Virus record (IMG/VR): IMGVR_UViG_2718218127_000001
Source: a virus
Taxonomy: Duplodnaviria; Heunggongvirae; Uroviricota; Caudoviricetes
Reading direction: 5' to 3' (one strand)
Length of the DNA: 14,646 bases
The notes below the pieces were generated by a model, which did not search any database, had not been told where the DNA came from, and saw only the letters and a list, made by a program, of their open reading frames with translations. Numbering within the stretch: the stretch's first letter is position 1; each line of letters begins with the position of its first letter. The position numbers and the translations under genes were made by a program. Below, one piece after another: positions 1 through 14,646 of this stretch.

Positions 1-825
1 CTATTTCTTCTCTGTAATTTTTACACTGTTTTCCAACTGCTTGATGCTGACCTGCGGGGTCGGCAACTCCTCAGGCATGGTTCCGCCAAGTTCCTGAATG
101 GTTTGCCTCACCTTGCGACCCACGTCAAAGTGTGTGGTGTTTGCTTGCTGTTTTGAATTCACGCCATCCCGCTTGAGTTTTTCTTCTGTTTGGGTAGCTC
201 GAAAGAGATTAGCCGCCAGTTCTGTTGAACCCATATGATCCAGGATCTTCTGATTCTTTTTCAGCCCCTTCCGCTGATGAATAGCTTTCTGATCTAATCC
301 ACCATACAGCCCCTGGTAACCATGATTCTGAAATATGGCGAAATCAGTAGCTGTCGCTACCCCAGCTTGCTGTGCTGCCTCAACCAATTGTTTGTTATGT
401 TCTTTCAACTCATTTCTCAGAAACAGACGCTTTTCGTCTTCACGAAGTTGCTTAAATGCTTCATCGTCAGCAAGCTCCTGCCGTCGGGTCTGGATAGCAA
501 AATAAGTCTGCCCTGCCGCAATGACCGGTTTCGCAGGGTCGCCGTTTTGTACTACCAGGTAACAGGCATAGCGGGAGAGTACGATGTCTTTTAATGCTCT
601 TTTGGCATTTGAGCCAATTTTGACCATATCGAGGATCTCCTCGAAATGGTCATCAATTGTGTGACCACTGTTCTCACAGGCTTCTTTGGCGCGCGTTAAT
701 ACAGGTATAAAGTGACGATACTCTGAATAACCCAGTAGTTTCCCAAGTTGTCTTGCTGACCATTGTTCTGCTCCGTTTGCATTAATCAGTTTTATCTCTT
801 CAAAAGGTTGATGATGTTCGTTCAT
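1..825 (-). CDS. dinD: DNA damage-inducible protein D (DinD-like), 274 aa from the internal ATG
   Basis: Track ORF 1..837 (-). The protein from MNEHHQPFEEIKLINANGAEQW matches my recollection of E. coli DinD. The track's extra MEWA residues are read across the Shine-Dalgarno (GGAGTGGG) that sits upstream of the ATG at 823-825. A LexA box lies about 46 bp upstream. Confidence 0.7.
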   Translation of the reverse strand: MNEHHQPFEEIKLINANGAEQWSARQLGKLLGYSEYRHFIPVLTRAKEACENSGHTIDDHFEEILDMVKIGSNAKRALKDIVLSRYACYLVVQNGDPAKPVIAAGQTYFAIQTRRQELADDEAFKQLREDEKRLFLRNELKEHNKQLVEAAQQAGVATATDFAIFQNHGYQGLYGGLDQKAIHQRKGLKKNQKILDHMGSTELAANLFRATQTEEKLKRDGVNSKQQANTTHFDVGRKVRQTIQELGGTMPEELPTPQVSIKQLENSVKITEKK

Positions 826-870
826 TGCCCACTCCATGTGATATCAATTGCAAAGAAAGTAAATCTGTAA

Positions 871-5495: not shown

Positions 5496-5548
5496 TGCCC
5501 ACCTCGTTATAAGCTACCCCCCCCATAGAATCTTTTTGGGGGTGTAAT

Positions 5549-5800
5549 ATCCCTACCAATCCCTACTAACTGGCTCAGGCCACGAATGGCAAGGCTTTCA
5601 GACTGGTAGACATTCAATTTTGTTGCCCTACATAACCCTACTTATCCCTACTAAATCACTTCAACGGCATTTTACTGCCTGTTTTATTTGGTAGGGATAA
5701 GTAGGGATAAGTAGGGATAAAAATATATATCCCTACCTAGTTTAAAGCCTTGCTACGTCTGGCCTCGTCTCGTTTTTAGTAGGGCAGTAGGGATAAGTGC
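5549..5800. repeat. iteron-type replication origin
   Basis: At least 11 copies of a TAGGGATAAG / CCCTAC core with 10-bp phasing: inverted-orientation copies near 5549-5566 and 5626-5651, three perfect tandem GTAGGGATAA units at 5691-5720, an AT-rich stretch AAAATATATAT, then further copies near 5731 and 5779-5796. Lies immediately 3' of the primase gene. Confidence 0.7.
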
Positions 5801-5813
5801 CGCCGTAAAAGTT

Positions 5814-8255
5814 TCAATCATCACTCTGCCCGCTCTCCACACCGTAAGCGCGTGGCATGAACTCCTCAGCCTTCTCGTTATAGCCAACGTTGGTTTGCGC
5901 TCTGCCGTTAATGCTTCTCGTCAGGTAGCTGGCTCGGTACTCTTTTGCTGCTGATTTTATGGCGCGTGAAAACTTATTGACGGAAAGCGGTTTACCCAAA
6001 CCGTGATACTCCATAAACGCCAGATAAAGATGATAAAGATACGTCCTCGGCTCTGGCTGGCCTGCCCATGTACCTCCGCCCATCATCATGCCTTTGGGTT
6101 CGTTCATGAAAAAAAGCGCCGCACACATATCGACAACCGGATCCGTGCCGCGTTTAACCTCTAGCGCCTCCTGCGAATCGCGCTGCTCTAGTAATAGTGC
6201 CTTTGCTTTGTTCTGGTCGGCAAAGGTGGTTAGCAGGTGGCGGATAATCACCGGGATTTCTCGCCTGATTTTTGCGGTTAAATCCGGGTCTTTGTCTGCG
6301 TCTGATACCGGGTTATTAAACGGGAATATCACGCGGCGGCGGGCAATGCCCCCGTTTCGCTCCGTGAATGTCATTGGCTCGTTATTGGTTGCCATAACAA
6401 CGGCATTTATCACGGTTGTGAACTGCTTTTCATATTTCCCATCAATCTCTACCGGATCGCCGCCCGTAATGGCTTTAATCCCCGCACCCTCTCCAACGTA
6501 GCGGGTCTGGTCAGGCATAATAATCAGGCTTTTCCCTACGAACTGCGCCCGTCCCCGTGCGGTGTCCAGCGTCATCATGCTACCGCTGGCGGTGTTGTGT
6601 TCACCTGCCAGCGTGGTTGCTATGCTGCTGAATACGGATTTCCCACTGCCGCCCTCGCCAGTTATCTCAATGAATAGCTGCCAGTCGTGACGCTTCGCCA
6701 GCACCATAAACAAGGCTGCTTTGATACGCTCGGCCTTATGATGGTCGCCAGCCGTTGCATGATTCAGCCAACGGGTAAAATTGGGGGCGCTGGTGGAAAT
6801 ATTCTCCCCCGGCGCTGGCGGGGTGTAGGTGATCCCATTGTGGTTCATCAGCCAGTTACCCGGCGAATGGGCGGAAAACGTCTGCGTAGCGAGGTCATAA
6901 ACGCCGTTATCAAAACCAATCAGATCCCCGCTCCGCTCACCAATTACCGGTATTTGCAGCTTCATGGTTGCGACAACCGATTTAATCCCTTTTTCGGTGT
7001 AGTGGGCTTCGTGCTCGTCGAAAATTGCCACCATAACCCTTTCTAATTCGCTGTCTGGTAGCTTCACCCATACGCCAGATTCGTAGCAGTAAACAGCGCC
7101 ACTATCAGGGTTGACCGCCAACATATCCCAGCGAGATGAAAGCAACCGCGCTTTCTGGCTGGCTGCCATTTGTGCAATATCTCCGACTTCGGCTTTACGG
7201 CGGGATTTACCGCCCACAATGGCCTGTAGTTGTGGTTTCACGGCTTCCCCCTGAATCTGGTACATCGAATCGTTAAACGCAGCCGTAGCGACTTCCAGCC
7301 CGTTTTGCTGGCGGTAGTCGTCCCAGTCGGCTTTGTAGTCTGTCGGCGGCAGCGCCACCCAGCCAGCCACGGATAAGGCGGCTTTCTCTGCGGCATCTTT
7401 GCCCGTGTTCGCCTGTTCGTCCTGCTGGTGGTCGTTATCTGCGGCAATGATAATTTGCGACTGCGGGTGTTTCCGGCGCATTACTCCGGCAACGTGGATC
7501 AGGTTCCCGGCGTCAATTGCCGCCACTGTAAGCGCGTCCGGGCGCATCAGGTGAACGGACAGGGCCGTCGCCAGCCCCTCGGCAATTAATACGCTCTGCG
7601 GCTGTTCTGGTGCGTTTACGGCGTGATATGCCCCGCGCTTTGCTGAACCTGTCAGGAGTCGCTTCTCTCCCTGCGGTGTAATGGTTTGCGCTGCTGCCAC
7701 TGCGCCGGATTCGTCCACCAGCTCCAGCAATAACGAACCATCCGGCATAACCGGATAGTTAAACCCGGTCAGCCCTTTTGATTGCAGGTAATCAGATTCT
7801 CCCTGTGTGGCACTCTGGCGCATTCCGGCATACAGACGGGCAAACGTAGCCCTTCGCTGCTCTGCATCCTCTGCTGCCTGTTTCTGGCGCTCCTGCTCAC
7901 GCTGCTGGCGGTCAGCTTCCAGTTGCTCTCTTCTATGGCTCGCTGCCACCGGGTCGGTTTGCGCTGCCCGGTAATCAATACCCAGCACATCAGCGGCAAG
8001 CTGTGCCGCCTCCGTAGTGTCGCAGTTGTTCACCTTCTTAATCAGGTCTAAACCGTCACCAGCGCCACACTGATTGCAGATAAAGCTACCGCGCCCGTTG
8101 TCGTCGAATCTGAAACGGTCTTTTCCACCACATGCAGGGCATGGAGAATGGCGGCGCGATGAATCAGGCACGTCGATAGACAATCCAGCCAGCACATAAG
8201 GCCAGCGCCCGGCGGCGGCACTGGTCACTTCGCGGATAAGGTCGATATTACGCAT
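5814..8255 (-). CDS. P4-alpha-like bifunctional DNA primase/helicase, 813 aa
   Basis: Track ORF with ATG start. N-terminal zinc ribbon CPACGGKDRFRFDD...FICNQCGAGDG, a central TOPRIM-like region, and a C-terminal NTPase with Walker A GEGGSGKS. Confidence 0.88.
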   Translation of the reverse strand: MRNIDLIREVTSAAAGRWPYVLAGLSIDVPDSSRRHSPCPACGGKDRFRFDDNGRGSFICNQCGAGDGLDLIKKVNNCDTTEAAQLAADVLGIDYRAAQTDPVAASHRREQLEADRQQREQERQKQAAEDAEQRRATFARLYAGMRQSATQGESDYLQSKGLTGFNYPVMPDGSLLLELVDESGAVAAAQTITPQGEKRLLTGSAKRGAYHAVNAPEQPQSVLIAEGLATALSVHLMRPDALTVAAIDAGNLIHVAGVMRRKHPQSQIIIAADNDHQQDEQANTGKDAAEKAALSVAGWVALPPTDYKADWDDYRQQNGLEVATAAFNDSMYQIQGEAVKPQLQAIVGGKSRRKAEVGDIAQMAASQKARLLSSRWDMLAVNPDSGAVYCYESGVWVKLPDSELERVMVAIFDEHEAHYTEKGIKSVVATMKLQIPVIGERSGDLIGFDNGVYDLATQTFSAHSPGNWLMNHNGITYTPPAPGENISTSAPNFTRWLNHATAGDHHKAERIKAALFMVLAKRHDWQLFIEITGEGGSGKSVFSSIATTLAGEHNTASGSMMTLDTARGRAQFVGKSLIIMPDQTRYVGEGAGIKAITGGDPVEIDGKYEKQFTTVINAVVMATNNEPMTFTERNGGIARRRVIFPFNNPVSDADKDPDLTAKIRREIPVIIRHLLTTFADQNKAKALLLEQRDSQEALEVKRGTDPVVDMCAALFFMNEPKGMMMGGGTWAGQPEPRTYLYHLYLAFMEYHGLGKPLSVNKFSRAIKSAAKEYRASYLTRSINGRAQTNVGYNEKAEEFMPRAYGVESGQSDD

Positions 8256-8589
8256 GGTTGCCTCCTGCCACGGTCGCGCCCATGTCTTTAACCATGCTTT
8301 GCCATATCTCGCGCCCGACGTCAGTCAATCCGTCCTTAGTGACGCAACGCTCAAGAAGCTCGACCCCCACGGTTTCCCACTGCGGGTAGGACACTTTCAT
8401 GGCTGCCAGTGTGTAGCTATCGATCAGGCTGCGAACGCCTTTTACTCCATTGACGATTTCCACACGGACGGCGAGGCCGTCCGCATCAACCATGAAATAG
8501 TCCCCGCCGCTGGTGGAGGTAATGTGGTTATACAGTGCCGACGCATATTTATTAGCCAGCGCATTCAGTCGGAAATTTTTAGTAATCAT
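8248..8589 (-). CDS. hypothetical protein, 113 aa
   Basis: Track ORF with ATG start and GAGGGG upstream. Overlaps the primase start by 8 nt. Confidence 0.55.
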   Translation of the reverse strand: MITKNFRLNALANKYASALYNHITSTSGGDYFMVDADGLAVRVEIVNGVKGVRSLIDSYTLAAMKVSYPQWETVGVELLERCVTKDGLTDVGREIWQSMVKDMGATVAGGNHA

Positions 8590-8597
8590 GTCGCCCC

Positions 8598-9224
8598 TCA
8601 GTGCGGCAGCGGCATTTCAGGCCAGCCGTTTTCATCCAGTTCAGCTATAAAGCTGTTGTGAAGTTCAGCAAGCGTTTCACGTCCGAACGGGGTAAGCTCG
8701 CCGCGCTCCGTATCCAGCATCGCCTTATAAAACACAATGGCTTTTTCCGTACCCTGTTCGACGCCGTATCGCTCAATCATTGCGCCCTCGATGTTGTTCG
8801 CCATCGCCAGCCGTTCAGCAAACGGGTAAATCACCATGCCCGCATTACCATTGGAGTAAATCGCCACCTGCGATGTTGTGCCGTCAGCCTCCGTGACGGA
8901 GGTTGTGCCGTTTTCGCGCTTCATTTCAGAAACGAACTTCGCAGCAATCAGCCAGCGCCACATAGTGACGTTATGCTGCGCGGTAAAGTCGAACCAGCCA
9001 CGCGCCCCGCCATCAGCAACGGCAAAATGAATGGCGTAGCCGATATCTGGCGTATCGTCGTACTCTCCCGCATCCAGACGGCTTACAGCGCTCTCATAGG
9101 TGATAATGGCTACATGCTCATACATCCCGGCATCATTGCGGGTCATGATGTTTACGCCGTGCGGTGTGGCTTCGGCGTGTAATAAGTCGGCATTTCCCGA
9201 TTTAATGGTCGGTGCGTTGCTCAT
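8598..9224 (-). CDS. hypothetical protein, 208 aa
   Basis: Track ORF with ATG start overlapping the upstream stop (ATGA). No domain recognised. Confidence 0.55.
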   Translation of the reverse strand: MSNAPTIKSGNADLLHAEATPHGVNIMTRNDAGMYEHVAIITYESAVSRLDAGEYDDTPDIGYAIHFAVADGGARGWFDFTAQHNVTMWRWLIAAKFVSEMKRENGTTSVTEADGTTSQVAIYSNGNAGMVIYPFAERLAMANNIEGAMIERYGVEQGTEKAIVFYKAMLDTERGELTPFGRETLAELHNSFIAELDENGWPEMPLPH

Positions 9225-9484
9225 GCGCTGCCCTCCGCATCAATTCTGGCTATATCGACAATCGTCAGGACTTTACTAAGCCAGCAATACACGATTTCGG
9301 CCTGTTCATCGTTTAGTTGAGTGGCTAAATCGGTCATAACGTGAGCCAGCCCATTGCGGGCGCGGGTCATGCGTTCTGCCGTTCGGTCTGCCAGCGTAAA
9401 ATCATCCGGGTAAGCCTGCTCGCGGGATAACATCGCTTCGGCTTCCAGCTCTGCCGGGTGGCGATAGATGGTAGTTATGTTCAT
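9221..9484 (-). CDS. hypothetical acidic protein, 87 aa
   Basis: Track ORF, part of the coupled operon. Confidence 0.45.
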   Translation of the reverse strand: MNITTIYRHPAELEAEAMLSREQAYPDDFTLADRTAERMTRARNGLAHVMTDLATQLNDEQAEIVYCWLSKVLTIVDIARIDAEGSA

Positions 9485-9795
9485 TTGCCCGCCCTCCCTT
9501 TGGCTTCTTTTTCACTGATTGAGCGCAAGAATGCGGCGTTTGCAGCGCTATCGTTCAGCGCCCGCGCAACTTCTCCGATATGTCCCAGCATTGCGCCTAA
9601 TCTGTACATATCAGCCCTAACGCTTTCCGCCGGGTAGTCATCGCTATTAGCCGCCCAGAACATGAGGCTACCGATGGCACTTACGCCCAGCATTAAATCA
9701 TTCACGGCATCACTGGCGCGGCTCTCAATTCCGTTCAGATCATCAGGTGTACAACCATCAAAGTCGCAGGACACTAAATCGTTATACAGGCTCAT
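9481..9795 (-). CDS. hypothetical protein, 104 aa
   Basis: Track ORF with ATG start overlapping the upstream stop (ATGA). Confidence 0.45.
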   Translation of the reverse strand: MSLYNDLVSCDFDGCTPDDLNGIESRASDAVNDLMLGVSAIGSLMFWAANSDDYPAESVRADMYRLGAMLGHIGEVARALNDSAANAAFLRSISEKEAKGRAGK

Positions 9796-9971
9796 GCTGC
9801 CACCTCACGAACGCGGGTAATCTGGATGTGGGAAAGGCGTTCATTTCTGGCCTGATTTAGCGCCTCAGCTTTGGCGCTGATCGCGCTGCGGGCGTCAACG
9901 ATATAAACGAACTCGACTAATTCGCCGCTCCGGGCGGTGGCGCATCCTGCAACACGGAAGTAATTAAGCAT
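9792..9971 (-). CDS. hypothetical small protein, about 59 aa from the internal ATG
   Basis: Track ORF 9792..10001 begins with TTG. The internal ATG (MLNYF...) has AGGGGG upstream and overlaps the preceding stop by 8 nt. Confidence 0.35.
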   Translation of the reverse strand: MLNYFRVAGCATARSGELVEFVYIVDARSAISAKAEALNQARNERLSHIQITRVREVAA

Positions 9972-10155
9972 GTGCGCCCCCTGTGCGAATACGTCCGGCA
10001 AAAAAGCAAACGTGATCCCGCGCCAGAATGCGGCGGGCTTCCTGCTCAGTCTCTGCGGCGATATGGTGAATTTTGGCGGTAATTGTCGGCATATCGCGGC
10101 GAACTGCTGCGATAATCCAGATAAATTGCGGTTTTTGGGTAGGGGTAGTAGCCAT
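9964..10155 (-). CDS. hypothetical small protein, 63 aa; first gene of the replication-module operon
   Basis: C-terminal part of the track's 250-aa GTG ORF. It has an ATG with a strong AAGGAGG 8 nt upstream (MATTPTQKPQ...). Confidence 0.45.
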   Translation of the reverse strand: MATTPTQKPQFIWIIAAVRRDMPTITAKIHHIAAETEQEARRILARDHVCFFAGRIRTGGAHA

Positions 10156-10182
10156 TATGGCAGCCTCCTTTGTGTTTAAGGA

Positions 10183-10221
10183 GTCACCGCCTGAGTTTCC
10201 ACGCTCTGAAATGGCGGTGAC
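10183..10221 (-). promoter_or_regulatory. stem-loop in the 5' leader of the replication-module operon
   Basis: Inverted repeat GTCACCGCC ... GGCGGTGAC (9-bp arms, about 21-nt loop). On the minus strand it is followed by TCCTT, which could pair with the AAGGAGG of the 63-aa gene. Confidence 0.3.
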
Positions 10222-10345
10222 GTTAGCAGGGGTGGAAATACCGGACACAAAGGAAACCGGCCTACGCGAACGTAGCCCCACTAACGCCACCATAGATACA
10301 GTACGGACGAGGCCGCTGATTTGATGTGCGTAGTGATCGGACACA

Positions 10346-10367
10346 AAAAAAGACGCTTTCGGCGTCT
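10346..10367 (-). terminator. putative rho-independent terminator on the minus strand
   Basis: Minus strand reads AGACGC-CGAAA-GCGTCT followed by TTTTTTT. It sits between the regulatory module and the replication module. Confidence 0.45.
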
Positions 10368-10654
10368 GTGTCGCCCTTAGTGTGTTCGGGTTTCCACGCC
10401 CGGTTGCTGATTTTGCAGCAACGCTTGGACTATAACAGCTTTTCTCTGCTAGGTGGTCATACCAGATAAAACCGTAACCCTTTAAGAGTTTTTCCTGTGC
10501 ACGGCTCACCATCTTTTTGTTGAGGGTAAGCGCCTCGCGTACTGGTAACGGAACTCCGGGCGCTGCGGTATCAATATCAGGTTTTGTAAGGTTGCAGATG
10601 TCAACTTTTGACAACATGCCAGCCAGATTAAAGGCTTCTTTCTGGGCGGCAGGT

Positions 10655-10837
10655 TCATTCAGTATCACGGCGCACCTCCACGAACTCATTAACGAATCTC
10701 TCCAAAGGCTGAACACATGGCGACTGATAGCCCTCGCGGTAAAAGGTCACTCGGTTATGCTCGACGCGCTGTACGGTCACTACAGCCCCGTGACTGTCCT
10801 TGTAACGGCTTCCCGGCATCGGATTATGGTTACGCAT
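10655..10837 (-). CDS. hypothetical small protein, 60 aa
   Basis: Track ORF with ATG start and GGAGGT 6 nt upstream. Overlaps the upstream stop by 8 nt. Confidence 0.5.
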   Translation of the reverse strand: MRNHNPMPGSRYKDSHGAVVTVQRVEHNRVTFYREGYQSPCVQPLERFVNEFVEVRRDTE

Positions 10838-11663
10838 GGTTTACCTCCAGACGTTTAGCGAGCCAGCGCTGAGAGAGGCGGATTAGCTCGGCTTTACGCA
10901 GGTCATATCCCATACCCATATCAATTAACGTGATATTGGTGCTTTCGAGATAGGCGAGGTGTTCAAGCTGTGCTGCGTTCATGCTGTCCCGTGGTTCGCC
11001 AGTAATGCCATTTGCCTGCGCCCACTGCTTCGCCGTCATGCCACCCAGCACGATACGGGCGATCATGTTGCTCTCGTTGCTGTAGTGGCGCTGCTGCGTC
11101 GTTTTACCCTGCTCGGCACGGGCCATATTCAGCGCATCGCACATTGGCTTAAAGTTGTTTGCGGCACTGATACGGGCTTTTAGCTGGCGACGATAGCGGG
11201 CGGCGATTTCAGGCACGCTACGCTGTAATTCTTCCTCGCACTGGATGAAATAACGGCGGATAGCGCGGCCCTGTTCGGTGCGTTCGACCATCGCCAGTTC
11301 TTTCGCCATTCCGACACTTAACAGATAGTCTTTGCCGGGTCTGCCAGACTGTTTAATCTTGCTGTAAGCCGCGCCATTCGGGCTTTTCCCCAGATTTGGG
11401 GAAATTGTTTTATGGACTGAGTAATCGTGCCCAATGGTGAAGTCATATTCAGAGATGCGATCAGCGATCCATGTAGAGAAGTCTTTTCCCACGCCCAACG
11501 CTTTGTGTAACGCTTTTGCGCTAACAATATTGGTTTCACGCCCACCGATATGACCAGGAATAACCGGGACAATTGTGGCAAATTCATTACCGTTAATTGT
11601 TCCCTGATAGGCGTTCAGATGAGGGGCGGCCTCAGAAATTAATCTGCTTTTTTCGATGTTCAT
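10830..11663 (-). CDS. phage antirepressor-like regulatory protein (AntA/KilAC-like), 277 aa
   Basis: Track ORF with ATG start and GGAGA upstream. The segment DYLLSVGMAKELAMVERTEQGRAIRRYFIQCEEEL resembles phage antirepressor / Bro-KilA type proteins; this assignment is from memory. Confidence 0.45.
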   Translation of the reverse strand: MNIEKSRLISEAAPHLNAYQGTINGNEFATIVPVIPGHIGGRETNIVSAKALHKALGVGKDFSTWIADRISEYDFTIGHDYSVHKTISPNLGKSPNGAAYSKIKQSGRPGKDYLLSVGMAKELAMVERTEQGRAIRRYFIQCEEELQRSVPEIAARYRRQLKARISAANNFKPMCDALNMARAEQGKTTQQRHYSNESNMIARIVLGGMTAKQWAQANGITGEPRDSMNAAQLEHLAYLESTNITLIDMGMGYDLRKAELIRLSQRWLAKRLEVNHA

Positions 11664-11675
11664 TTTCAGTCTCCG

Positions 11676-12110
11676 TTAGGCGGCGGTGAGATTGTCCGGG
11701 TATAGGTTGAGAATGTCGGCAATTTCAGGCTGAGAAAGTCCCTGATAGCCGCCAGCGTCGGCGTTATGGTTCACAAGCCGAATAACTTTCAGAACGTCAC
11801 CGCGCCCGGTAAAGCGATAGCGTAAATGTGACCCTATCCCGTCGGGGTTCTTTTCGTCTATACGCTCAAGCTGAATATCAAGCCTGCGCTCTAACTCACT
11901 GGCGTAGTTCCTTCCAGACGAAAGGCGGCAATAACGCAGAATGTCGTTTTCTGTCCATCCCTCTACGCCAGTACGCAGCATATAGACGCGGGCGCGGTGT
12001 TTCTTTGGGGTTCGCTTAGGTACTTGTACCGGGCTGGTGGTCGGCGTAATATCAGACGTGCGAATATCTGAGTTAGCCGCCTGCTGTACGGGGCGGTTTT
12101 TCTTTTTCAT
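11676..12110 (-). CDS. hypothetical basic protein, 144 aa
   Basis: Track ORF. Its ATG overlaps the alpA stop (TAATG), so it is translationally coupled to alpA. Confidence 0.5.
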   Translation of the reverse strand: MKKKNRPVQQAANSDIRTSDITPTTSPVQVPKRTPKKHRARVYMLRTGVEGWTENDILRYCRLSSGRNYASELERRLDIQLERIDEKNPDGIGSHLRYRFTGRGDVLKVIRLVNHNADAGGYQGLSQPEIADILNLYPDNLTAA

Positions 12111-12313
12111 TACGCCACCTTTCCCCGGCGCTCCGCCAGCCAGTTGTGAATATCAGCCGCATCAAAGGCGGTAATCTTCTCGCCCAGCTTTACCGGACGT
12201 GGTAGTGAACCGTTTCTTACTTTACGGTCGATGGTGGATACACTAACGCCCAGCAATTCAGCCAGGCGAAAGCGTCTGATATAGCCTTTTGTAGGGATAG
12301 TGTCGATGTTCAT
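12110..12313 (-). CDS. alpA: AlpA-family (Vis/excisionase-like) HTH transcriptional regulator, 67 aa
   Basis: Track ORF with ATG start and AAGAGG upstream. The helix-turn-helix LAELLGVSVSTIDRKVRNG and its small size and position next to a P4-type integrase are typical of AlpA/Vis. Confidence 0.72.
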   Translation of the reverse strand: MNIDTIPTKGYIRRFRLAELLGVSVSTIDRKVRNGSLPRPVKLGEKITAFDAADIHNWLAERRGKVA

Positions 12314-12425
12314 GATTCCCGTAACCTCTTAGCGATAGTTGTTGCTTCGTTACGGGTATTTAATGGTGTGTATGCTCAAAAGTGAATTACAGTAAATTTT
12401 ATTGTCACGATACTAAATTTTATTA

Positions 12426-13271
12426 TCATGATTTCTTCTTTCCTGCCGTGGTACGTTTTTCCGGCAATCTGTCCATGTCAGATATGATCTTCTTTAAATA
12501 ATCTGCAGATGGTTCATCATAATCGCCACCCACATGTGGCCAGTGGTCTATCGTAGCGTTTGCCCACGCTTCGTTGGTTTCTTTCCCGTTTTTCCCTTTG
12601 CACTCTTCAGGATAGTGCCGTTTCACATAAATCAACGCCATAATGCTATTCTCACGGTTTAGGCTATGTCGTGCTCTATTTCCATGCTCTATGTTTTTAA
12701 ATTCCTTTTCATAAAGATCGTGTGAACCCAAATGGAGTATGCTGGATATTGGCTGATTTTTATCCATGCTTTCAGCTATATATTCAACCCACGGTCTTGA
12801 TATATACAAATCTTCCACAGACGATACGGTGGTATCATATTCGCGAAAATCGTAGAAAAAGTAACATCCTGATGTGATGTCTAGTTCTTTTTTTATATAT
12901 GCTGGTGAGAATATGAGTGGAATGTCAGGGACTCTCTTAACCCCTGCAAGGGAAGCAATGAAATCTCTAGGAACGTGCCATAATCCACTTGCTGAGCACT
13001 TCATACCATCGAAAAAACCTTCATTTAGATATCTTTCGGTATCTTCTCTAGTAGAAATAATAGAACCAAATAATAAGTTTTCTATGCCTTTGCTGCCGTG
13101 GTCTGGTGGCAAGTTTCCCACTTGAAGGAGTACGCCTTCATACTTGTGAATTATTGTGCTCAAAAATATAGAGCCTGATACTCCCATAAGTAGAAGATCA
13201 TCGACTTCTATTTCTAATAAATTTGCTGCTCTATTAAGTCGGAAAAAAAGATTTGGTGGTAGTTTTTTCAT
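12426..13271 (-). CDS. hypothetical orphan cargo protein, about 281 aa, AT-rich
   Basis: Track ORF 12426..13286 begins with GTG. The ATG five codons in (MKKLPPN...) has AGGTGA upstream. Base composition is visibly more AT-rich than the flanking genes. No family recognised. Confidence 0.6.
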   Translation of the reverse strand: MKKLPPNLFFRLNRAANLLEIEVDDLLLMGVSGSIFLSTIIHKYEGVLLQVGNLPPDHGSKGIENLLFGSIISTREDTERYLNEGFFDGMKCSASGLWHVPRDFIASLAGVKRVPDIPLIFSPAYIKKELDITSGCYFFYDFREYDTTVSSVEDLYISRPWVEYIAESMDKNQPISSILHLGSHDLYEKEFKNIEHGNRARHSLNRENSIMALIYVKRHYPEECKGKNGKETNEAWANATIDHWPHVGGDYDEPSADYLKKIISDMDRLPEKRTTAGKKKS

Positions 13272-13386
13272 TGCGTCACCTTTCACGCTACGCCTTAATG
13301 AGCGATTGAGTCAGGCGGTAAGGCTTCCCGCTTTTCACCCCGTCGGGCTAGACTCAATCTGTCCTCTGATTCTTTACATATCTTGG

Positions 13387-14646
13387 TTACTTCGCCTTTC
13401 TCAGCGGTGTAACGTTGTATTCCTGCCCCTGTTCCAGTGCCACCAGCAATCCCGCCCACTGTGTTAACGCGGCCCGGCGTTCATCAAAGTATTGGTGGCG
13501 GTTATAGATACCCTCCACGCCTTTAATTTTGTGGTTGAGGCATCTTTCAGCCACTACGGGATCAACGCCCAGCGCGGCTAAATGGGTGCGGGCTGTGCGC
13601 CGGAAGTCGTGAATAGTGAAATTCGGCACGTCCGGCATTTCAGCGCGAACCTTAGCCAGTGCTACGGGTAAAGTGCTTTCCTGAATATGTGGGATCATGC
13701 GGTTTTGCATCTTTCTGGCTGGCAGTACCCATGCGCTGTTGCATGAGAACGTTTTAAGCTCTCTCAGCCATTCGACGGCTGGCGGTGCTAATGGAATGTC
13801 TATAGCGTCGCCGTTTTTGCTGCGTTCCTCTGGCAAGCGCCATACGGCTTTATCAAAATCGAACTCCTCCCAGCGGGCGGCGCATAACTCCATTTTGCGG
13901 ACGCATAACGCTAACAGTAATTTGAACGTGATTTCGTTCTGGCGACTGAATCCCTTAGCCGTGCGCATGGCTTTGAATAGCTGGATTAACTCATCGCGGG
14001 TTAACCAGCGGTCACGGGCAACTTCTTTCCCTCCAGCGTCGGCAACCTCAAAGGCTGAACACGGGTTAATCTCCAGTGCGTGCCGCTTAATGCCGTAGTC
14101 AAATATGCGGCGTGTCCAGCGCAGAACGTCCGTTGCTATGGTCGGCGCTCCACGGTCAACAATACCTTTCAGCATGTCATCGATATGGCGCGGCTTCACG
14201 TCCTCCACCTTCATGCTGCCAATGCAGGGGTTTATATCTTTGTCGATACGGCGGCGGAGTATATCGGGGTGCTTCCAGCGCGGAAGGATCTGACGCTCAA
14301 AGTATTCAGCGGCAAGCTCTGAAACGCGCATAGCGTTCTTCTCTGCTTCCATCTTCGCCAGTGCTTCGGTTTTGCGCCTCTGCTTCTCTCCTGCAACGTC
14401 ATAGCCCAGCGCAACGCGAGCCGATAGCTCTTTGGCTGTCTCTCTGGCCTTTGATAGTGATAGCTCGGCATATGAGCCAATCAGCATGGCGCGGGGTTTC
14501 CCTGCGAATTTATAGCGGAATCGCCAGACGGGGGTCTGGTAGTTTTCGCGGTATGAAAGATAAAGCCCGTTACCGTCAGAGCGTCCCTCGAATCGCTCCC
14601 CGGCCTTTATCCATGCGCGGATCTGCATGTCTGTGAGTTTTGGCAT
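13387..14646 (-). CDS. int: P4-type tyrosine integrase, 419 aa; start codon at the window edge
   Basis: Track ORF with ATG at 14644-14646. N-terminal arm-binding-like region (GLYLSYRENYQTPVWRFRYKF) and a C-terminal catalytic region with the HDFRRT...H..Y tyrosine-recombinase pattern. Confidence 0.9.
   Translation of the reverse strand: MPKLTDMQIRAWIKAGERFEGRSDGNGLYLSYRENYQTPVWRFRYKFAGKPRAMLIGSYAELSLSKARETAKELSARVALGYDVAGEKQRRKTEALAKMEAEKNAMRVSELAAEYFERQILPRWKHPDILRRRIDKDINPCIGSMKVEDVKPRHIDDMLKGIVDRGAPTIATDVLRWTRRIFDYGIKRHALEINPCSAFEVADAGGKEVARDRWLTRDELIQLFKAMRTAKGFSRQNEITFKLLLALCVRKMELCAARWEEFDFDKAVWRLPEERSKNGDAIDIPLAPPAVEWLRELKTFSCNSAWVLPARKMQNRMIPHIQESTLPVALAKVRAEMPDVPNFTIHDFRRTARTHLAALGVDPVVAERCLNHKIKGVEGIYNRHQYFDERRAALTQWAGLLVALEQGQEYNVTPLRKAK

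Follow-up and report, generated by a model that had tools for sequence, protein, structure and literature searches.

The alpA end of the operon in an EcCIMP1-like phage satellite of Escherichia coli and a proposed two-tier switch

We analysed a viral DNA record of 14,646 nucleotides (IMG/VR record IMGVR_UViG_2718218127_000001; the whole stretch is referred to as the window), which, judged by its genes, is an EcCIMP1-like Gram-negative phage-inducible chromosomal island (PICI), an E. coli phage satellite of known kind. The analysis centred on the interval 10830–12313, in which the gene for the activator AlpA is followed by genes for a 144-aa protein and a 277-aa protein with an AntA domain. We consider it reasonably probable (about 0.6) that this interval is the promoter-proximal end of a long coupled operon governed by a two-tier switch, with the AntA-like protein in neither tier. 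The switch would consist of the alpA promoter, a hairpin in the alpA leader and a C4 RNA checkpoint, and the AntA-like protein would act as a downstream effector. A preliminary description of this DNA had treated alpA, the 144-aa gene and an antirepressor-like gene as the induction switch. The underlying observation was confirmed, with the open reading frame (ORF) coordinates and other sequence features all present as described, and the interpretation was partly supported. Most deserving of further study are the hairpin, with its covariation and its position relative to the promoter, and the winged-helix protein that invariably accompanies AlpA. Concretely, the analysis offers three targets: a covarying hairpin that covers the ribosome-binding site of alpA, a winged-helix protein specific to satellites, and highly mosaic operator-like repeats upstream of the alpA promoter. 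The label "antirepressor" on the gene that follows the 144-aa ORF should not be taken as a function.

The putative alpA promoter and the leader hairpin

The gene alpA (12110–12313, minus strand) encodes a predicted 67-aa activator and excision factor of the AlpA/Vis type with a winged helix-turn-helix (HTH) fold. The protein matched the Pfam families Phage_AlpA (PF05930; 1.8e-7, 31.3 bits against a cut-off of 21) and HTH_17, and scored below the threshold for TIGR01764 "excise" (24.5 bits against a cut-off of 28.8). The proposal that alpA is the helper-responsive activator agrees with the family assignment and the canonical PICI position of the gene and, by analogy, with experiments on the islands EcCIMP1 and EcCICFT073. 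In EcCIMP1, alpA is required for excision, circularisation and transfer by the helper phage Kapi1, and the alpA promoter region reacts when the helper is induced but not to DNA damage by itself (Pick et al., 2025; PMC11773190). In EcCICFT073, alpA is likewise essential and helper-induced, and reporter data from both islands concern the activation by AlpA of its own promoter and of the island operon. The paper that defined the Gram-negative PICIs in 2018 describes the phage inducer of alpA as still under study. In the first tier of the proposed switch, the helper phage would thus activate the alpA promoter and AlpA would reinforce its own expression, as shown in related islands.

The leader hairpin, CCCGTAAC-N23-GTTACGGG (12318–12356, minus strand), was found exactly where the preliminary description had placed it. 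Its arms (12356–12349 and 12325–12318) enclose a loop of 23 nt and end 4 nt before the ATG, so that the structure spans the spacer and the G-rich, Shine-Dalgarno-like bases of alpA. The hairpin was present in both the minimum free energy fold and the centroid fold. Taken as a single sequence it does not exceed chance: inverted repeats of at least 8 nt within 40 nt number 35 in the window, and local folding gives a z-score of -1.5.

Comparison across related islands gave a different picture. Window-type alpA leaders were collected from genome, viral and metagenome contigs, yielding 55–64 distinct sequences depending on the stretch compared; a 15-mer scan of viral contigs returned mostly chance matches and four usable leaders. 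Nearly all window-type leaders carry a stem at the same place, with differing sequences: besides CCCGTAAC/GTTACGGG, we found CCCCTAAC/GTTAGGGG, CCCCATAAC/GTTATGGGG, CCCCGTTAC/GTAACGGGG, TCTCGTAAC/GTTACGAGA, GCTTCTTGTAAC/GTTACGAGAAGC and ATACCCCT/AGGGGTAT. In one stem class TAACTTC pairs with GGAGTTA and thus takes in GGAG. In an alignment of 20 leaders, 83.9% of the cells were paired and 7 of the 11 base pairs showed compensatory changes on both sides. The covariation score was 0.230, as compared to 0.099 in shuffles (reached in 0 of 500) and to 0.06–0.08 when the partner was slid by 1–3 columns.

Leaders of the other alpA allele contain unrelated stems with 3' arms bearing GAGG, AGGAG or GGGG (TCTCGTAA/TTACGAGG, GCTCCTGT/ACAGGAGT, CCCCCTGT/ACAGGGGG and GTTACCTTGTTT/AGATGAGGTAAC). 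Mean folding z-scores of the leaders were -2.6 and -1.7 for the two alleles, as compared to 0.3 to -0.9 for the starts of antA, p208, primase and int in the same loci, used as controls, and the mean pairing probability of positions -15 to -4 was 0.76 and 0.70, as compared to 0.43–0.53 at the controls. Judged from these comparisons, the element is a Shine-Dalgarno-sequestering hairpin, a conserved helix with compensatory changes that includes the ribosome-binding region, and it probably controls the translation of alpA. The suggestion that the hairpin gates alpA translation gains from the conserved, covarying structure over the initiation region what it could not gain from the single sequence. 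No Rfam family covers the hairpin, and no description of it was found in the searchable literature.

A palindromic DNA operator for a dimeric protein would suit the promoter-proximal location and the other palindromes farther upstream in relatives, but we regard this as very improbable because the arm spacing varies (13–26 nt, reaching 42 nt in the other allele), the arms change in a compensatory manner to unrelated sequences and the 3' arm consistently holds Shine-Dalgarno-like G runs, all of which argues for an RNA structure.

A putative alpA promoter was read from the sequence at 12358–12386 (minus strand), with a -35 element TTCACT (12386–12381), a spacer of 17 nt and a -10 element TTAAAT (12363–12358). 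Among 44 non-redundant window-type leaders, the score for a -10-like hexamer peaks exactly 10 nt upstream of the G in GTAAC, with a mean of 0.37 as compared to approximately -4.5 elsewhere. Transcription of alpA would then start about 7 nt past the -10 element, inside the 5' arm of the hairpin. Terminator prediction gave nothing between alpA and the cargo gene upstream of it. Since alpA appears to have its own start within the 5' arm and no predicted terminator upstream, the arrangement suggests an IS10-like fold-back that insulates alpA from outside transcription.

In IS10, the 5' arm is present only on transcripts from outside, where it pairs with the ribosome-binding region, and the element's own promoter starts inside or after the arm. 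Davis, Simons and Kleckner reportedly described in 1985 this fold-back inhibition of transposase translation on read-through transcripts of IS10/Tn10. The likeness is purely one of analogy, with the start site in the window placed by the positional signal of the -10-like hexamer. In the corresponding scheme for the island, the 5' arm, which is anti-Shine-Dalgarno in sequence, pairs with the G-rich bases before the start codon, as the covariation indicates. RNA initiated at the alpA promoter would have its 5' end within the 5' arm, lack the stem and be translatable, and RNA reading through from int and the cargo gene would include the complete hairpin and remain silent.

The same covariation and the same burial of the Shine-Dalgarno bases could also be explained if the hairpin is present on every alpA transcript and serves as a regulated gate, opened by a trans-acting factor such as a helper RNA or protein, an RNA helicase or processing by RNase III. 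This version matches the idea in the preliminary description and is favoured by the weak -10 geometry in the second allele; it is challenged by the -10 peak that abuts the 5' arm in window-type leaders, by the poor conservation of the loops between the two alleles and by the fact that no candidate for a trans-acting factor is known. We treat the regulated gate as a tentative possibility, to which we give about the same weight as to fold-back insulation.

Two direct repeats, AATAAAATTTA(C/G)T(G/A)T, lie 21 nt apart at 12389–12424 (minus strand) and end 3 nt upstream of the putative -35 element. The two matches were not reproduced in any of 200 shuffles, which is weak support given that the pattern was defined post hoc, and the repeats may serve as an activator-binding site. 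The 60 nt upstream of the hairpin are highly mosaic among related loci (L006–L248), with at least five unrelated types of palindromes or direct repeats beside nearly identical alpA genes. Examples upstream of the putative -35 element are TCGCAACGAAAA-N4-TTTTCGTTGCGA and GGTACAGT-N6-ACTGTACC. Such mosaicism next to a conserved alpA would fit exchangeable inputs from different helpers. A blastn search with two of the operator types found nothing meaningful among 50,697 phage records, and the idea that the repeats mimic phage promoters was dropped as no phage counterpart was found in this way. A sigma-70-like match, TTGTCA-16-TATCAT (10 of 12 positions; 12402–12429, plus strand), points away from alpA, overlaps the direct repeats and runs antisense to the cargo gene's end; sigma-70-like matches in the region were no more numerous than in shuffled sequences.

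The probable winged-helix partner of AlpA and the exchangeable slot

Translational coupling of alpA to the gene for a basic 144-aa protein (11676–12110, minus strand) was verified at the junction GCGTAATG, where stop and start overlap by 1 nt (TAATG). A start that overlaps the alpA stop codon (TAATG or TGATG) was found in about 37 of 47 loci, and most exceptions are artefacts of start calling. The overlap holds for both alpA alleles, which share only 31% identity. The protein is basic as stated (pI 9.75, and 11.5 for residues 1–45), and the AlphaFold2 model contains a basic disordered tail and a confident winged helix, with a predicted local distance difference test score (pLDDT) of 88. The family comprises 98 clusters at 50% identity among 1.84 billion representatives. 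No match was obtained in Pfam, PHROGs, NCBIfam or PADLOC and no homologue in the 50,697 phage records, and a Foldseek comparison with viral structures returned generic HTH matches only. Some RefSeq records label the protein as a "PM1773 family protein", a name for which a literature search found nothing. From its predicted fold and position, we suggest that the 144-aa protein is probably a satellite-specific DNA-binding partner or co-factor of AlpA. In the first tier, AlpA would be made together with this winged-helix partner, which is invariant in the lineage.

Integrase clades, defined at an identity of at least 60%, and alpA alleles co-varied perfectly in 27 of 27 loci (10 of 10 with the window-type and 17 of 17 with the MP1-type allele). 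This would fit AlpA working with its cognate integrase, and may also reflect plain linkage. The 144-aa gene and the slot cassette that follows it are common to both alleles. The co-variation fits a published remark on relatives of EcCIMP1, in which Int and AlpA vary and the antirepressor, Ash and the primase are conserved (PMC11773190).

The 277-aa protein (10830–11663, minus strand) is encoded after a gap of 12 nt that holds GGAG. It matched the Pfam family AntA/AntB (PF08346) over residues 47–129 (1.9e-21, 76.9 bits against a cut-off of 27) and PHROG 5817 "anti-repressor Ant" (3e-37), and its C-terminal part matched PHROG 2657 and the PADLOC family PDC-S22 (1.2e-9). The domain content thus agrees with the term "antirepressor-like" in the preliminary description, and the antirepressor function that the term implies is a label taken from the family name. 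No solved relative was found in a sequence search of PDB with this protein.

The gene occupies a slot whose content varies among related islands. In a set of 46 loci from Enterobacterales, Orbaceae and Tolumonas, the slot begins 13–16 nt after the 144-aa gene; AntA proteins fill it in 26 loci, Bro-N proteins of about 195 aa in 11 and Rha-type proteins in 2, and the other 7 loci, some of them truncated contigs, have no recognisable cassette. Over roughly the first 75 nt of the slot gene, similarity between types equals that within types; thereafter, identity is 0.22–0.32 between types as compared to about 0.7 within them. The resulting leader of about 25 residues (M-x-IEKSRFNSEAAP-like) is common to the AntA, Bro-N and Rha proteins. 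The leader pattern can be written as M-x-IEKSR-F/L-x-SEAAP..., and many cassettes share the 3' end ...(E/A/G)-(V/N)-H-(A)-stop, which overlaps the next start (observations on 10830–10905 in the window and on the slot genes of loci L003–L039). The shared leader and the shared 3' end place the cassette boundaries inside coding sequence. Cassette type reassorts freely with the alpA allele.

On this comparative evidence, cassettes or domains are exchanged at the slot downstream of a shared leader, in agreement with the "Bro zone" described in a comparative paper. That paper divides Gram-negative PICIs into an integration zone (Int and AlpA), a dynamic Bro zone, a replication zone and a late zone, and places in the Bro zone Bro-N-network proteins that swap domains, AntA, Rha and Phage_ASH among them, as well as C4/isrK immunity RNAs. 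A survey from 2026 lists Bro, AntA/AntB and Rha as "putative antirepressors" in PICIs. As AntA, Bro and Rha genes in PICIs are already published, the gene set of the window joins a known kind. Because the slot is exchangeable, and may hold AntA, Bro-N, Rha or nothing, behind an invariant pair of alpA and the 144-aa gene, the AntA gene is not a fixed part of a switch, and the earlier assignment of the 277-aa protein to the induction switch was not upheld. Instead, the AntA-like protein is probably an early effector expressed from the alpA promoter, and the exchangeable cassette would be directed against the DNA or regulators of the helper or of a competing phage.

One form that such an effector could take is a sequence-specific DNA-binding regulator or interference factor that acts on promoters of the helper or of a competitor, or a contributor to superinfection immunity of the EcCIMP1 type. 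Domains of the Bro network have been described as DNA-interactive, and PLE CapR is a proven repressor of the helper capsid promoter (Nielsen et al., 2023; PMC10111431). CapR resembles the window protein in being a satellite protein of the Bro network encoded in a dynamic zone after the integration module, and differs in having a known DNA target in the helper. EcCIMP1 adds an unexplained superinfection immunity to its host and is without a known defence system (PMC11773190). The match of the C-terminal half of the 277-aa protein to PDC-S22 points in the same direction, as does that of a second Bro-N protein in the window (1–837) to PDC-S13 (1e-121), although the PDC families of PADLOC are candidates and not proven defence genes. 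As no candidate for the DNA target was identified and the structure model was unusable, we hold this specific form to be conceivable but doubtful.

Less probable still, and in our estimate rather unlikely, is the model of the preliminary description, by which the AntA-like protein is a true antirepressor of the repressor of a resident helper prophage. The satellite would then induce its own helper, like P4 epsilon acting on P2, and cassette swaps would retarget it to other helpers. Such a role would agree with the AntA and PHROG Ant matches, with the exchange among AntA, Bro-N and Rha, types that are often annotated as phage antirepressors or regulators, and with the location of the gene under the helper-responsive alpA promoter and upstream of the RNA immunity checkpoint. 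The immA region of N15 also pairs an Ash/icd unit with a Bro-N protein (gene 30) that is annotated as an anti-repressor, but which gene of this region is the tested antirepressor could not be verified. The validated antirepressor Ant1 of P1, which according to the annotation of the P1 record antagonises C1 repression via an Ant1/Ant2/C1 complex, contains an ANT/KilAC domain without AntA and is barely similar to the 277-aa protein (BLASTP E = 0.011, 23% identity). EcCIMP1, which encodes a protein 89.5% identical to that of the window, changed neither the titres of Kapi1 after induction nor a cI-lux reporter when studied as a whole island (PMC11773190). The 7 loci without a recognisable cassette also speak against this model, with the proviso on truncated contigs given above. 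Moreover, a helper that activates alpA is already induced, so that antirepression would be useful only on arrival in a new lysogen. A literature search for a tested AntA-type antirepressor in Shiga toxin phages was unproductive, and Edwardsiella phage EPP-1 has a full-length AntA homologue in an unannotated and uninformative genomic context.

The C4 RNA module and comparison with P4 and P1

Downstream of the slot gene, a 60-aa ORF (10655–10837, minus strand; Pfam DUF4222, 1.4e-22) begins within the end of the 277-aa gene at the junction ATGCGTAA, with an overlap of 8 nt. The preliminary description had spoken of such overlaps in the plural, which fits this interval only loosely; further overlaps of 8 nt lie downstream, at icd and the next ORF and at p113 and the primase gene. 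The DUF4222 ORF overlaps by 14 nt an Eta/Ash-like ORF (9964–10668, minus strand) that starts with GTG at 10668, has GGAGG 6 nt upstream and ends as a nested icd (ATG at 10155 to 9964). It matched NCBIfam phage_ICD_like (1e-20), and the Pfam domain Phage_ASH was detected in residues 95–195 (nt 10434–10132) when the ORF was taken as 9964–10716.

This ORF runs in frame over a complete antisense-RNA immunity module of the P1/P4 type (10210–10435, minus strand) and into icd. The module contains c4-a1b1 targets (10383–10435, 55.1 bits), an isrK-like element (10346–10422, 72.2 bits) with a predicted terminator-like hairpin (10351–10367), and a C4 RNA (10210–10297, 81.1 bits), with all three Rfam scores above the gathering thresholds. 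The C4 RNA contains GTTTCC; its complement GGAAAC occurs upstream of C4 and a second time immediately ahead of the icd Shine-Dalgarno sequence. All parts of a C4/cI-type antisense immunity system were thus identified: the C4 RNA, the a1/b1 targets and, farther downstream, a target located at the ribosome-binding site of icd. The module lies outside the coordinates covered by the preliminary description, which counts against its interpretation of the interval as the switch. The match to Phage_ASH coincides with the c4-a1b1, isrK and C4 RNA genes, and at least part of the conservation of this "protein family" may stem from the RNAs; gene 32 of N15 gave the same Ash match.

From icd to the primase gene, every junction is an overlap of 4–8 nt or a short gap. 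The region 5814–9971 (minus strand) comprises five small ORFs, with overlaps of 4–8 nt, and the gene for a P4-type primase-helicase (5814–8255; Pfam Zn_Ribbon_Prim, Toprim_3, D5_N, DUF5906 and Pox_D5). As the junctions are tight throughout, alpA to the primase gene forms one chain of about 12 coupled ORFs.

In the second tier of the proposed switch, translation would proceed from alpA via DUF4222 into the Eta/Ash-like ORF over the C4-type module. By analogy with P4 and P1, the module would terminate or silence transcripts that start internally, and ribosomes arriving from upstream would override it, so that icd and the replication genes are expressed. The left operon of P4 (PLL, vis, eta/kil, cI RNA and the alpha primase) is similar in that it opens with an AlpA-family gene that is translationally coupled to the following ORF, after which come an Ash/Eta-type ORF over a C4/cI-type immunity RNA and a P4-type primase. 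In P4, according to the summary in the comparative paper, translation from the upstream late promoter through eta would prevent cI-dependent termination. The window differs in having three extra genes (for the 144-aa, AntA and DUF4222 proteins) between alpA and the Eta-like ORF, and none of sid, delta, psu and epsilon was recognised in the window.

The immI region of P1 has the same layout of a C4 RNA flanked by a1/b1 and downstream complementary sites, of which the latter precede the icd Shine-Dalgarno sequence and icd. In P1, however, the antirepressor gene is located downstream of c4/icd and under their control, whereas the AntA gene of the window is located upstream and would therefore escape such control. 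The two proteins also differ in domain, Ant1 having ANT/KilAC and the window protein AntA.

Several points weigh against the two-tier reading. The -10 signal is clear only in window-type leaders and weak in those of the other allele, shared ancestry may inflate the peak, and a simple promoter scan called neither the alpA promoter nor an internal promoter. The geometry of the EcCIMP1 leader is different, with the main inverted repeat ending 21 nt before the ATG. The functions proposed for the 144-aa and AntA proteins are deduced from fold and position only, and the AlphaFold model of the 277-aa protein was too poor for use (pLDDT 51.5), with only near-identical sequences in the alignment. Finally, the translational override of the immunity module is borrowed from P4.

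A more ambitious proposal, to which we assign a low probability, is that the hairpin, the abutting promoter and the coupled 144-aa protein form a previously undescribed PICI control unit. The hairpin would insulate alpA, the 144-aa protein would be an obligatory partner of AlpA in sensing the helper or amplifying its signal, and the AntA/Bro-N/Rha cassette with its 25-residue leader would be a helper-specific effector for manipulating, and perhaps derepressing, a resident helper. If true, this would provide a direct handle on how helper phages induce PICIs.

Island context and neighbouring features

All genes in the window are located on the minus strand over about 14.6 kb, as seen in the ORF listing, and int, alpA and the primase gene are co-oriented in an island of the type that spans about 10–17 kb. 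A Pfam scan of the window proteins detected no capsid, tail or lysis domains. Gram-negative PICIs correspond to "Type C" of SatelliteFinder, a class that was assigned here by its published description. The gene order on the minus strand is int, an int-alpA RNA motif, an AT-rich ORF, a spacer of 112 nt, alpA, the 144-aa, 277-aa and 60-aa ORFs, the ORF that ends in icd, five small ORFs and the primase-helicase gene. Many E. coli chromosomes carry the region; in strain EC21Z-137, an island of about 13 kb flanked by yicC and dinD has the same order (int-AlpA-AntA-DUF4222-Icd-primase). The alpA/144-aa region was matched in 672 of 5426 complete E. coli genomes, approximately one in eight.

EcCIMP1 of E. 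coli MP1 (PMC11773190) is a close relative, with an alpA of 67 aa, a 143-aa protein, an AntA protein of 277 aa, DUF4222, Ash/Icd, small ORFs and the primase in the same order. Identities to the window are 89.5% for AntA, 78% for the 144-aa protein, 63% for DUF4222 and only 31% for AlpA, which belongs to a different allele. The two islands differ in the integrase, the attachment site (tRNA-Thr near proA in EcCIMP1) and the leader; EcCIMP1 is also without the 286-aa cargo gene and has captured ejection-protein genes and a second alpA-like gene.

The tyrosine integrase gene (13387–14646, minus strand; Pfam Arm-DNA-bind_3, Phage_int_M and Phage_integrase) is directly followed by the int-alpA RNA motif (RF02996; 13292–13358, minus strand; 57.1 bits as compared to a gathering threshold of 35.8). 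An equivalent site, about 1.0–1.15 kb upstream of alpA, was found in 13 of 20 related loci. The motif does not adjoin alpA in this lineage and precedes a variable cargo gene (loci L170–L246). It ends with UAAGG just 5' of the cargo ORF, and the AAGG could be the Shine-Dalgarno sequence of the cargo gene.

The cargo ORF (281–286 aa; 12426–13286, minus strand) between the motif and alpA is AT-rich, with a GC content of 0.39–0.40 as compared to about 0.52 elsewhere. Its product had no match in Pfam, PHROG, PADLOC or NCBIfam, and its relatives form only 9 clusters among 5.8 billion proteins. The conserved N-terminus (MKKLPPN-FF-L-RAA-LLEI) is loosely like the start of AlpA, a kinship that was rejected as the profile comparison was not significant (probability 0.4%).

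Islands of the Enterobacterales type were also found on contigs labelled as Chryseobacterium (L011), a Paenochrobactrum metagenome-assembled genome (L019) and Pseudomonas lundensis (L029), with 144-aa proteins that are 62–88% identical; these may reflect contamination, mis-binning or genuine transfer.

The second Bro-N-domain protein, mentioned above, has 278 aa and is encoded at the far end of the island (1–837, minus strand); in addition to the PADLOC candidate family PDC-S13, it matched a model named "Type I specificity subunit" (4e-114). Just downstream of the primase gene, at 5547–5798, ten-base iterons (A/G)GTAGGGATAA and their complement ATCCCTAC occur in both orientations at a spacing of 10 nt. 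Weak matches to the Rfam family MIR5070 on both strands at 5622–5721 were discarded as artefacts of these iterons, which probably form the replication origin.

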